NCBI GenBank assembly: GCA_041697335.1
Contig: JBGUGD010000021.1
Coordinates: 1-47,378, forward strand
Direction of reading: 5' to 3'
DNA: 47,378 nucleotides
Source of the DNA: Vampirovibrionaceae bacterium NZW_1234
GTDB lineage: Bacteria; Cyanobacteriota; Vampirovibrionia; Vampirovibrionales; JAGQHJ01
The first letter of the stretch is position 1, and the number at the start of each line of letters is the position of its first letter. The translations under genes were made by a program, and so were the position numbers. Under the pieces are notes generated by a model. It did not search any database. It worked only from the letters and a program-made list of their open reading frames with translations, and was not told where the DNA came from. This document shows, piece by piece, positions 22,325 to 28,097 of this stretch.

Positions 22325-22391
22325 ACCTCTGCTCAGGAGAGGGGCTTTCGAGATTTGCTCGATTCTTATTCAAAAATTCAACAATAAAAAA

Positions 22392-22439
22392 TAGTGGCGG
22401 AGCATAGAATGGAACTGTAGATACAAAAACTTTAAGGCC
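22392..22439 (-). repeat. degenerate copy of the tRNA-Phe 3' half (att-like scar 3)
   Basis: tagtggcggagcatagaatggaactgtagatacaaaaactttaaggcc matches the intact tRNA at 37/48; the A-rich trailer is also similar. Confidence 0.85.
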
Positions 22440-22473
22440 ATATGCCTCAAAGAAGGCTACTAAGCTGACTGAT

Positions 22474-23088
22474 TTACTTGGGGTCTAATGCTTCCAGGCG
22501 ATAGGTCACCCGGTGACCCACTTTTGACACCACTAGGGCAACCTGCTGAAGCCCCTGGGCAATAAGAGGGGCAATAGCCGATTGAAGCCGTGAGCGGTAT
22601 TGGGAGCGCGCTTTTTTCTGGCTCAAAAGACCAAGGGTATTGACTGCATCATGGACCGGCCTGGCATCTTCATTGGTAAAAACGGCGAAATCCAGTCGAC
22701 CTGGATCAACCGGCGAAGAGGCTGCCTCAGGGTCTCTGAACAAAAGAATATTATTTGTGTCCTTATGCATGGCAAACGAAAATGGGCGGGTATCATCAAC
22801 GGATTGCAATATGGGCTGTAACTCCCGGTTCATCTCAGGAATATCGGACAGGGGGACTTCGATGCTATGGATGTCGTCGGTGTTGAAATGCTCGGCTAAC
22901 CCTGTCTCTATTGCTTCCTGATGACGAGAATAGTGGTTTCTTTCTAACCCTTCGAAAAAATTTTGGACATGTTGCATCTTTTTCTGAGTTTCAGTGATTT
23001 CATGACCTTTTGAAGAGCGAACCTGAGAAATACGGTAACGGGCGCCAAATAGGATAGGGGTATGTGAGTTGGTCTGTGTAATAGGCAT
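22474..23088 (-). CDS. hypothetical protein, 204 aa
   Basis: GAGG RBS; S/T/P-rich leader ending in LFG. Confidence 0.7.
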   Translation of the reverse strand: MPITQTNSHTPILFGARYRISQVRSSKGHEITETQKKMQHVQNFFEGLERNHYSRHQEAIETGLAEHFNTDDIHSIEVPLSDIPEMNRELQPILQSVDDTRPFSFAMHKDTNNILLFRDPEAASSPVDPGRLDFAVFTNEDARPVHDAVNTLGLLSQKKARSQYRSRLQSAIAPLIAQGLQQVALVVSKVGHRVTYRLEALDPK

Positions 23089-23235
23089 GGCTAATATTCC
23101 TCAGGGTATGCTTTTTATGTGCAGATTATTGAAATAAACCGCTCATAATCAAAAATTGCTTATGGCCTCCTCCCAATATAGAAACATCAGAACCGAAAAT
23201 TCGTCATAACTGAAAAATACAGGAGAAAACGATCA

Positions 23236-23766
23236 ATGACGTTGCCGGCAATCGTAACGATTGGTGTTTATGGGTTTACTGAAAAAGGCTTTTTCGATGC
23301 ATTGCAGGCTGCCGGGGTTGATTTGCTGTGCGACCTGCGCCGACGTCGTGCCGTGCGTGGTACTCATTATGCGTTTGCCAACAGTGCACGCTTGCAGGCA
23401 CAACTGGCGGAGCGGGGCATCCTTTATCGGCATATTCTGGCGTTGGCTCCGGACATTGCCCTGGTCAAGCAGTTGCATGCCGATTTCAATCATCTTCCCA
23501 AACGTCAGCGCGATCGGCTGAACACGCGCTATATTGATGCCTACACCGAGAGATATCTGAGCCATTTCGACGCCCGGGATTTCATCGAGAGCCTGGGGCC
23601 TGCAACGACCGTTGCTCTTTTTTGCGTTGAAACAACGCCTCAGGCCTGTCATCGCGGGCTTATCTCCGACCGGCTGGAGGCTGATCTGGGCATCCACATC
23701 CGCCACCTGCTCCCACCGTTAAGCCCCGGACAAACCACCATAATGAGTTCTTGCGGAGCAACTTGA
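23236..23766 (+). CDS. DUF488 family protein
   Basis: TIGVYG, DLRRR, ALFCVE..PQACHR; AGGAG RBS. Confidence 0.85.
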   Translation: MTLPAIVTIGVYGFTEKGFFDALQAAGVDLLCDLRRRRAVRGTHYAFANSARLQAQLAERGILYRHILALAPDIALVKQLHADFNHLPKRQRDRLNTRYIDAYTERYLSHFDARDFIESLGPATTVALFCVETTPQACHRGLISDRLEADLGIHIRHLLPPLSPGQTTIMSSCGAT

Positions 23767-23797
23767 GTTATAAAAACCTGACTGTAAGCAGATTTTA

Positions 23798-23859
23798 GCG
23801 GACAACAAAATATACCCCTAAGGTATGAACTGGGGACACAAGGATTTTTAGTTCCCCTG
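23798..23859 (-). repeat. degenerate copy of the tRNA-Phe 3' half (att-like scar 2) with a 14-bp insertion
   Basis: tgaactggggacacaaggatttttag matches the tRNA at 24/26; gcggacaacaaaat resembles gcggatcacagaat. Confidence 0.8.
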
Positions 23860-23907
23860 TCAACGTCGCTTTGGGCTGATACATGAATGGAGATTAGGGC
23901 TTGAGTT

Positions 23908-26686: not shown

Positions 26687-26716
26687 AAAAGGACGACTCA
26701 ACAAGTAGTCTTTTTT
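26687..26716 (-). terminator. hairpin immediately 3' of the pseudo-tRNA
   Basis: aaaaggacgact-caaca-agtagtcttttt with A/T tails on both sides. Confidence 0.45.
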
Positions 26717-26717
26717 C

Positions 26718-26789
26718 AATGCTTGAAGAGAGTCGAACCCTTGGCCTCCCGTTCCCGTGACGAGCGCTCTGCCACTAAGCCGCAAACGG
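26718..26789 (-). pseudogene. degenerate tRNA (nominal anticodon CGG)
   Basis: D arm GCTT/GAGC, anticodon stem CTCGT/ACGGG, T arm AAGGG-TTCGACT-CTCTT; acceptor only 5/7 paired, no U8/U33, no CCA. Confidence 0.75.
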
Positions 26790-26796
26790 ATAAGAG

Positions 26797-26851
26797 TAGT
26801 TGCGGATCACAGAATTGAACTGTAGACACAAGGATTTTCAGGTCTTCTGCT
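26797..26851 (-). repeat. copy of the tRNA-Phe 3' half (att-like scar 1)
   Basis: tagttgcggatcacagaattgaactgtagacacaaggattttcaggtcttctgct; about 4 substitutions and 1 indel vs 28022-28075. Confidence 0.95.
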
Positions 26852-27079
26852 AACAATGATATAGACGTATGGACATTTTGATCTTTGATTCATCGTTCTG
26901 AAGAGAAGAAAACAGCAAGCTTTGATACACAAAAAGATACTAGCAACAGTTGCTCAGAGGATGTTTCATTCTGCCATCCGAAACATGTAGATAAGGACAG
27001 CACATTTATTGCTCTAGAGTTGAAGAAAAGCAAATCGGGGCTTATTTAGCAGATTGTTCTTTATTGGGGAATTTGATGG

Positions 27080-27910
27080 TTAGAGATTAATTTCTGTTTG
27101 GCTATTGCCATCGTTGAGTATCACTTGGGTAATTCCAAAAATTTTATAGCCTTCAGGTTGGGCTTTTATGATTGCGTGTAACTGTTGCTTAAAAGCAGAT
27201 GTACATTGAATAAATAAAATTTCTTGAGTTTCTCCTTTGAAAAAGGCATCGGATATTAAACCTGTTTGTTTGAGAGTGATGAATCCCGACAGAAGAGCTT
27301 GTTTCCCTGATGATAGGGCTTGCTCTTGGGAGAACAAATTCATATTTGAAGGCATTGGAGGTTCCGATAGCGTAGAGGGAATTGGGTTTGTTTCATTCAA
27401 TTCAGTATATTTTGACCAAATTTCTTTAAAGGAAGCTAAATGCTCTGGTTTAAATTTAAACTCAATTCCATTTATTCTCCCTTCAATCTGTTTTGCATTG
27501 GCCAGCTGAGCAAAAACAGTTGGTGTAAGAGTAAGAAATATCCATTCTCTAACGTGGCCACCATAGATAACGTCTCCAGATCGCATTATAGGAAATGTGG
27601 ATGGTTCTTGGTCAATAAGTAAATCTAGTTCTTTAGCTTCTAAAAAGACCCATCCTTCAGAAGAACTCTGAAAGGTAATAATTAAGTGATTGTCTACTTT
27701 GCTATCTTTAAAATAAAAGGAGGCGTCTGCATAAAGCCCATGGAGAGGGCTAAAAAAGGAGCAATTAGTGCACGAAATTCTGTGGTTATCTGTAGAATAC
27801 TGAGACAGAGCTTTAAATTTATCATAGGTTAGAGAGAGTTTTGCAAATCCTAACGAAGGGAAAAACAATAAAAATAGACAAACTAGAACTATGAAATTCA
27901 GTTTGGACAT
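27080..27910 (-). CDS. AT-rich putative exported hypothetical protein
   Basis: Signal-like MSKLNFIVLVCLFLLFFPSLGFA; much lower GC than the core genes. Confidence 0.75.
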   Translation of the reverse strand: MSKLNFIVLVCLFLLFFPSLGFAKLSLTYDKFKALSQYSTDNHRISCTNCSFFSPLHGLYADASFYFKDSKVDNHLIITFQSSSEGWVFLEAKELDLLIDQEPSTFPIMRSGDVIYGGHVREWIFLTLTPTVFAQLANAKQIEGRINGIEFKFKPEHLASFKEIWSKYTELNETNPIPSTLSEPPMPSNMNLFSQEQALSSGKQALLSGFITLKQTGLISDAFFKGETQEILFIQCTSAFKQQLHAIIKAQPEGYKIFGITQVILNDGNSQTEINL

Positions 27911-28021
27911 TAATTTATATTTATAACAATTATTATACATATTTAGAATTTATCACAGCGGAGACGGCATGCTCATGCAAATTTGAACTGGCATTCCATA
28001 GCCTGCATTCAGACAAAAAAA

Positions 28022-28097
28022 TGGTGGCGGATCACAGAATTGAACTGTGGACACAAGGATTTTCAGTCCTCTGCTCTACCAACTGAGCTAATCCGCC
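28022..28097 (-). tRNA. trnF: tRNA-Phe(GAA)
   Basis: GGCGGAT-TA-GCTC..GAGC-A-GAGGA-CTGAAAA-TCCTT-GTGTC-CACAG-TTCAATT-CTGTG-ATCCGCC-A-CCA; full cloverleaf, 76 nt. Confidence 0.98.

Follow-up and report, generated by a model that had tools for sequence, protein, structure and literature searches.

The window analysed here is a 47,378-nucleotide stretch of DNA from Vampirovibrionaceae bacterium NZW_1234 (GenBank assembly GCA_041697335.1, contig JBGUGD010000021.1), i.e. contig C39 of a 3.7-Mb genome (hereafter G000) that is 94.75% complete. It carries an intact tRNA-Phe gene followed by three small gene units, each closed by a copy of the tRNA 3′ half. From the tRNA outward, the features of this array are:

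28022..28097, minus strand: intact tRNA-Phe(GAA), the integration target (ARAGORN; Rfam 70.5 bits)
26797..28021: unit 1, 1225 bp, GC content 0.36, probably the youngest unit and integrase-free in remnant searches
27080..27940, minus strand: gene of unit 1, a 286-aa AT-rich orphan with a hydrophobic N-terminus and no Pfam match
26797..26851, minus strand: copy 1 of the tRNA-Phe 3′ half, 42/45 identical over tRNA positions 32–76, with the 7-bp loop CTGAAAA intact
26718..26789, minus strand: tRNA-like element, whole but decayed, that heads unit 2 (Rfam 29.2 bits, E 0.0085), overlooked in the original prediction
23908..26553, minus strand: UvrA2-type ATPase of 881 aa, the sole gene of unit 2, 3004 bp (Pfam; TIGR00630 above cut-off, PRK00349 below)
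23793..23859, minus strand: copy 2, 37/45 identical, loop mutated to CTAAAAA, with a 14-nt T-loop insertion (23825–23812) that has short inverted ends
23236..23766, plus strand (opposite to the tRNA): DUF488 protein of 176 aa (PF04343) in unit 3, 1401 bp
22474..23088, minus strand: 204-aa orphan of unit 3 with host-like codon use and an N-terminal ...ILFG motif, as in many proteins of this genome
22376..22439, minus strand: copy 3 (22439–22392) followed by a T-tract, 35/45 identical, loop mutated to CTTAAAG, probably the oldest displaced fragment

The original prediction, made from the DNA letters alone, had described three same-strand 3′-half copies downstream of tRNA-Phe. BLASTN and local alignment confirm exactly three in the window, with matched bases of 49/53 (26851–26799), 25/27 (23852–23826) and 36/46 (22439–22394). 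Copies 1, 2 and 3 score 88, 50 and 53, far above both the next best match in the window (25) and the maximum of 33 reached with the tRNA 3′ part as query over 300 shuffles of the 7-kb region. When 1006 genome windows were scored with the same query, two windows of C39 reached 108 and 87, one of contig C31 reached 51 and the rest did not exceed 36. The copy nearest the tRNA is, as had been claimed, the best preserved, and the identities (42 > 37 > 35 of 45) indicate that decay grows with distance from tRNA-Phe. These results support the earlier interpretation of the copies as age-ordered, attR-type displaced 3′ halves that stem from integration at the anticodon loop, and we infer a crossover within the loop CTGAAAA (28066–28060). 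Because the 7-bp overlaps of copies 2 and 3 are mutated, both are expected to be poor recombination partners; judging from the loops, excision or co-mobilization by an arriving tRNA-Phe element may remain possible for unit 1 alone.

Two other origins of the copies were considered: (i) that they are whole decayed tRNA genes was dropped, as only copy 1 reaches ∼9 bp into the D-arm side; and (ii) that copy 2 derives from a foreign tRNA-Phe allele is not favoured, as the host allele fits it with a score of 54.5 versus 47–50 for foreign alleles. The 14-mer inserted in copy 2 has no exact match anywhere else in the genome. A displaced copy in G192, another genome of the order (L151 1745–1697), contains an insertion of ∼50 nt at the same T-loop position (after GTTCA), and both insertions are possibly scars of a second, T-loop-targeting event.

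The presence of small cargo units between the copies is borne out by their measured lengths (1225, 3004 and 1401 bp). The cargo is also as previously listed (an AT-rich open reading frame (ORF), a UvrA-like protein, a DUF488 protein and an orphan), apart from the label 'exported' for the first of these, which derives solely from a hydrophobic N-terminus and is at best putative. The unit 1 gene is compositionally foreign (GC3 of 0.29, at the 0.1 percentile; codon score at the 2.3 percentile), and its product weakly matches the uncharacterised phage family phrog_36853 (E 8e-5); homologue searches with this protein were blank, and its Atlas matches are at 0.81 only. The tRNA-like element at 26718–26789 has an apparent anticodon CGG (Pro-like), has lost U8 and U33, pairs 5/7 acceptor stem positions and has a minimum-free-energy z-score of 0.59. 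It has no close match among the host tRNAs and was not found in 48 relatives (i.e. genomes of the same order as G000). This is likely the remnant of an element-borne tRNA, and the foreign tRNA-like remnant and the phage-family-like gene are possible leftovers of mobile elements.

Unit 2 encodes only the UvrA-like ATPase, which we take to be a class II UvrA (UvrA2). The protein is 85% identical to one of a Vampirovibrio metagenome-assembled genome and 63–77% identical to proteins of other phyla, and uvrA2 is present in 2/48 relatives, on contigs without a tRNA-Phe match. The DNA shared with the closest gene (85% at the amino acid level; L066/L201) is limited to the gene plus ∼60 bp. That gene sits in a 17-kb stretch of G164 with ∼15 ORFs between two tRNA-Ile-like fragments, the distal of which is weak (score 36 versus a shuffle maximum of 31). 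Among 80 uvrA2 loci, none has a tRNA-Phe fragment or an integrase from our query set, and 3/80 have any tRNA-like match. In unit 3, the DUF488 protein has homologues at 92, 77 and 76% identity and then at ≤58%, and it is 14–16 aa longer than the closest three; it was not found in 120 genomes of the class, a sample that did not contain the four family members. The 204-aa orphan has no match in the 48 relatives or the Atlas. Codon scores of the genes in units 2 and 3 lie at the 19–59 percentiles and are host-like; only the unit 1 gene is compositionally foreign. A defence function for DUF488 and UvrA2 was not adopted, since the PADLOC matches are at domain level only.

An FG motif occurs near the start of 186/2784 ORFs of the genome, compared with ∼4% at internal offsets. 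In units of this family that are bounded by attachment sites (att), orphans whose N-terminal low-complexity stretch ends in ...[R/L/H]FG or similar are frequent (window 22474–23088; the G003 unit, L021; the C31 unit). At a guess, these orphans are secreted effectors.

We then compared the tRNA-Phe locus across the order, as the original prediction had proposed, and found a hotspot that holds intact islands, broken integrases and small integrase-free units. A tRNA-Phe pattern search matched 45 of the 49 genomes of the order (reversed-pattern control, 0). At least one displaced tRNA-Phe 3′ copy is present in 13/48 relatives; these copies begin at about positions 25–32, at or just before the anticodon loop, and match their own host's tRNA-Phe allele where that tRNA is assembled. 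Loci were examined from 42 of the 44 matching relatives (G122 and G142 were left out), and the counts are lower bounds because many of these loci end near tRNA-Phe. An intact integrase lies at the tRNA, after a copy or within the island in 8/42 (G006, G012, G016, G024, G156, G181, G186 and G192), and a broken one at the site in 7/42 (G004, G008, G012, G025, G026, G186 and G192). In a tree that leaves out 5/23 rows (fragments or short proteins), the tRNA-Phe integrases fall into two clades, neither of which contains an intact G000 protein. G004 belongs to the same family, shares the upstream acyltransferase and has an identical tRNA; between tRNA-Phe and a type I restriction–modification operon it carries a frameshifted integrase remnant of ∼350 bp (PF00589 with a stop). 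A 1.87-kb unit of G026 contains nothing but a frameshifted integrase and a helix–turn–helix (repressor) gene; it is closed by a 44/45 copy and is an island in late erosion. Units with an intact integrase that are bounded on a single contig measure 43.6, 21, 18 and 12.5 kb, and bounded integrase-free units 5.8, 3.0, 1.4, 1.24, 1.23, 1.10 and 0.17 kb, with the pseudogene unit at 1.87 kb.

Several further observations concern these loci. In G004 (C165; L023 12149–12465), a 45/45 tRNA-Phe 3′ half lies ∼7 bp after an intact tRNA-Leu(TAA), and next comes a 171-bp unit that has no genes and has a decayed copy. On contig C31 of G000, similarly, Leu fragments (9812, 9413) and a Phe-like fragment (3119–3075) share a strand, a hint that this family has arrays of mixed Leu/Phe type. 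G181, G146, G003 and one metagenome locus (L156 328–1171, L154, L160, L021 and L054) have MNT-HEPN toxin–antitoxin pairs beside tRNA-Phe or a copy of it, and addiction by such pairs may help islets persist. The 18-kb tRNA-Phe island of G016 (L026 5049–19409) contains cas9-like, cas1 and cas2 genes, an insertion sequence and an efflux system. Pattern scans of metagenomes gave 0 matches at first and then 11 loci, mostly tRNA-Phe of other taxa and none from a close strain. A viral scan gave four loci with a different tRNA cluster and without a match to the tyrosine integrases used, and was uninformative.

The stacked layout is not special to tRNA-Phe, as the fragments at other tRNA genes of G000 indicate. 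At tRNA-Val(CAC), an integrase and a 36.5-kb island with terminase-like and umuDC genes end in a 100% copy, beyond which lies a 4.4-kb integrase-free unit that ends in an 86% copy; Ile and Leu fragments stand 0.9 and 0.4 kb apart on C22 and C31. The tRNA-Val layout bears on the proposal that the copies arose by local duplication of, or slippage at, the tRNA 3′ end and that genes were later inserted between them, without any site-specific element. The host-like codon use in units 2 and 3, the host-type orphan in unit 3 and the restriction of uvrA2 homology elsewhere to the gene would all fit such an origin. However, the integrase-bearing islands of the relatives share the breakpoint at the anticodon loop, unit 1 is strongly foreign and the same layout follows an intact island at tRNA-Val, which together make local duplication highly improbable.

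A closing copy is the host 3′ half displaced at insertion, so its decay dates the insertion of the unit. Closing copies of intact islands are identical to the tRNA (45/45) in 4/4 cases, G192 after allowing for its ∼50-nt insertion, whereas those of integrase-free units retain 42, 37, 35, 40, 39, 39 and 28 of 45 positions (7/7 decayed). The closing copy of G003 was scored against its neighbouring copy because the tRNA of this genome is unassembled; G026 and copies whose unit is not bounded on one contig were left out. The association of decay with integrase state gives an exact one-sided p of 0.003 (0.008 with one unit per genome), which is descriptive because units that are kin or stand in tandem are not independent.

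Neither an integrase nor a remnant of one was detected in the three units by tblastn with 14 and then 23 integrases or by an unfiltered six-frame hidden Markov model (HMM) search. As a positive control, a clade B model recovered 5/5 remnants of the relatives (E 1e-17 to 1e-52), and the absence of a visible integrase noted in the original prediction thus holds by both methods. Relaxase and transfer genes were not found in the units by Pfam, with two cargo genes remaining unannotated orphans. Elsewhere in the genome, where the original prediction had suggested looking for intact recombinases, there are nine PF00589 matches: two XerC/D-like, three beside tRNA-Val, -Ala and -Pro, one beside tRNA-Leu, one in the Val island, one at the end of C41 and one broken on C21. 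The G000 integrases lie outside both tRNA-Phe integrase clades (best identity 30–38%, with no intact member). The broken one, at C21:41773–42070 (L063), is a clade B (tRNA-Phe-type) remnant that is 50–79% identical in pieces, and no tRNA or att was found near it. None of 13 TIGR02249 matches exceeds the cut-off for an integron integrase (the best two are XerC/D-like), and no resolvase was found in the genome. Because 5% of the genome is missing, an unassembled helper recombinase is possible, as is an integrase that visited in the past.

These searches bear on the suggestion of the original prediction that a recombinase acting in trans, from the host or a visiting tRNA-Phe phage or integrative and conjugative element (ICE), inserts minimal att circles, so that the units arrived small at an integron-like locus. 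Such loading would explain why the units are tight, gene-sized and without remnants, why small integrase-free units also occur in G018 and G181 and why both G181 and G146 have an MNT-HEPN pair immediately behind tRNA-Phe. The microcin H47 island, for which mobilization in trans is described in PMC3191183, and the accretion-mobilization of cis-mobilizable elements (CIMEs) as presented in PMC7563491 provide precedents. An active loader of minimal cassettes should also leave some fresh small units, however, and none is seen in this small sample: the tRNA-proximal ones of G000, G018 and G181 have closing copies of 42, 40 and 39 (undecayed in 0/3). Nor do the sites of the window share an arm: their 200-bp flanks show no common similarity (upstream z ≤0.4; best downstream pair z of 3.6, score 25 versus a shuffle maximum of 23), compared with a 120-bp, 85% identical arm shared by the G003 copies in the control (z = 24). 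Moreover, there is no intact G000 integrase in the tRNA-Phe clades, no integron integrase above cut-off and no resolvase, and homology to relatives is limited to genes rather than units from att to att. In the contigs of the four runs used out of 14 (depth 1–9), no excision joint was seen, which is weak evidence. Integron-like loading thus gains no positive support from the shared arms, cognate or integron integrases, excision joints and undecayed small units that were sought, and we regard it as unlikely. The same doubtful standing applies to a variant in which Vampirovibrionales circulate one-gene, att-only circles (including the lineage-specific FG-motif orphans) that visiting tRNA-Phe integrases load in trans, with no resident recombinase.

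The contigs of these runs also provide strain data. In strain X7, from a separate study, one contig over copy 1 (∼26743–27006, ∼264 bp) has 14 listed substitutions, with four new, non-reverting changes in the copy itself, so that this divergent strain retains the copy 1 junction; another runs ungapped from uvrA2 through copy 2 and extends only 8 bp past it, without forming a bridge; and a single contig has an 8-bp deletion in DUF488. The substitutions and the deletion suggest that the array is older than these alleles and appears to be decaying. The contigs of X7 and X10 leave stretches uncovered at the unit 1 gene and the unit 3 orphan, from which nothing can be concluded at such depth.

The X7 contigs are >99% identical to the window upstream of the tRNA and 94–99% identical within the array, as if the array had been exchanged by homologous recombination. 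This would fit an addition anchored by homology without an integrase, in which DNA of a relative recombines at the tRNA, joins illegitimately at its other end and brings along the donor's islet and tRNA copy; for the additive islands of Alteromonas, PMC4898812 describes cassettes that illegitimate recombination added at tRNAs. Across the order, however, displaced copies start at or just before the anticodon loop, which is a site-specific signature, and foreign alleles fit copy 2 no better than the host allele does, as given above. Such exchange may move eroded arrays but leaves their origin unexplained, and we consider it quite improbable as the source of the units.

We conclude that the three units are probably fossil, CIME-like remnants of integrase-bearing islands that inserted serially at the tRNA-Phe anticodon loop and were whittled to one or two genes. 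The erosion of islands down to their cargo, which the original prediction had given as the alternative to loading, is supported by the intact islands, broken integrases and small units of the relatives and by copy decay that tracks integrase loss. The proposed course has four steps: (i) a tyrosine integrase would recombine attP with the 7-bp anticodon loop, restoring the tRNA and displacing the old 3′ half to the far end, an anatomy that is observed and a mechanism that is established for tRNA-targeting integrases (PMC4383910); (ii) each newcomer would enter at the tRNA and push older elements outward, as the series 42 > 37 > 35 suggests; (iii) deletions would strip the integrase and most of the cargo, a process for which intermediates exist in the relatives and which is presumed for the three units; and (iv) without an integrase, the displaced copies would decay neutrally.

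Several points weigh against this interpretation of eroded islands. The units keep no integrase remnant, so their erosion is inferred and not seen, and remnants were likewise not detected in the units of G018, G181 and G003 or in the genome's own tRNA-Val unit. The units are as tightly trimmed as cassettes would be, with 26–243 bp between gene ends and att copies and 81–93% coding, and integrase-free units of 1.1–1.25 kb with one gene or one pair lie directly behind tRNA-Phe in three lineages (G000, G018 and G181). The identity difference between copies 2 and 3 is small (37 versus 35), and the empty site is undefined because no same-genus genome was available. Finally, none of the three cargos was found inside an integrase-bearing island in any relative, and no integrase was detected in the 17-kb uvrA2 stretch of G164. 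Integrase fragments inside the units, or the same cargo within large integrase-bearing islands, had been named beforehand as signs of simple erosion. What was found is partial: relatives do carry integrase remnants at this site, and a larger stretch at another tRNA's fragments, itself without an integrase, contains the closest uvrA2; the three units themselves contain no remnant.

Other features of the window and genome are as follows. A tetratricopeptide-repeat glycosyltransferase gene (28311–29699) lies between the acyltransferase gene and tRNA-Phe and is not at that position in G004 or L062. Just past the array, 3723–20800 is a large glycosyltransferase/FkbM methyltransferase/ABC-transporter cluster with host-like codon use, which includes a tandem paralogue pair (19374–19994 and 20033–20800, 58% identical). 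The segment at 39202–39298 belongs to a dispersed family of short palindromic repeats present on at least 12 contigs. A second, different tRNA-Phe (G000:C40:17–91; L038) lies on a 3.4-kb contig of 39% GC with pieces of a leucyl-tRNA synthetase gene, possibly a bin contamination.

On the eroded-island explanation, the locus is of modest importance: in a lineage that has received little study, it cleanly illustrates how tRNA hotspots convert large mobile islands into permanent one-gene additions, and the relatives give a full series at one tRNA from intact island to gene-free scar. Loading in trans, if true, would be a route of gene capture parallel to integrons; nothing tested favours it.

We finally compared the locus with known systems. 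Integrons consist of the integrase IntI, an attI site and attC sites. Like an integron, the locus is a stack of small gene units with the newest nearest a fixed site. Unlike an integron, it has no IntI above cut-off, its separators are decaying tRNA halves without shared flanks (copy 1 is decaying further in X7), one cargo gene is inverted and the units keep 26–243 bp of non-coding ends. On the features tested, the locus is not an integron. The additive flexible islands of Alteromonas are also cassettes at tRNA-Phe and, as described in PMC4898812, are near-identical between species, whereas no sharing of whole units is seen here. As in the islands identified by Islander (PMC4383910), a tRNA gene is accompanied by a same-strand displaced 3′ fragment with the anticodon-centred site A, but the units lack a tyrosine integrase and only 1/3 exceeds 2 kb (Islander length, 2–200 kb). 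Since Islander, as presented there, demands an integrase per member and at least 2 kb, these units are filtered out by definition, and island finders with such requirements miss them.

Eroded islands and islets are described in PMC5812530, and our search of the open-access literature found nothing on the tRNA-Phe locus of this lineage. In the tandem ssrA islands of Dehalococcoides (PMC3146451), 15 of which are reported without integration modules and proposed to be CIMEs or fixed relics, multiple direct repeats of the targeted RNA gene's 3′ end delimit the islands, as they do here. The Dehalococcoides islands differ in having a tmRNA target, a 20-bp T-loop-region repeat and serine integrases, compared with a 45-bp anticodon-loop repeat, tyrosine integrases and smaller units at tRNA-Phe. 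The CIMEs of Streptococcus, according to PMC7563491, are decayed elements that keep att sites without recombination genes, measure 1.2–13 kb with cargo or 130–220 bp without (microCIMEs) and always lie farthest from the target; the same source cites, second-hand, 215 CIMEs at tRNA-Lys of S. agalactiae. The units described here likewise have direct att repeats of the target gene's end as their boundaries (1.2–3.0 kb and cargo-only here, 171 bp and gene-free in G004), contain no detected integrase, relaxase or transfer genes and are most decayed farthest from the target (42, 37 and 35 of 45). In contrast to the Streptococcus CIME arrays, none of the three units has an integrase and the array contains no functional ICE or integrative and mobilizable element (IME); two of the three att overlaps are mutated; the host belongs to the Vampirovibrionales; and descent from an ICE or IME, as opposed to a prophage or another kind of island, is unproven. 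The locus behaves like a tandem CIME array, with strict membership, i.e. ICE or IME ancestry and functional att sites, unproven. The pattern that the original prediction called unusual is already on record, both in tandem CIMEs and in ssrA islands that lack integration modules, and the stacked eroded units at this tRNA-Phe most likely represent that known pattern rather than a new integron-like system.

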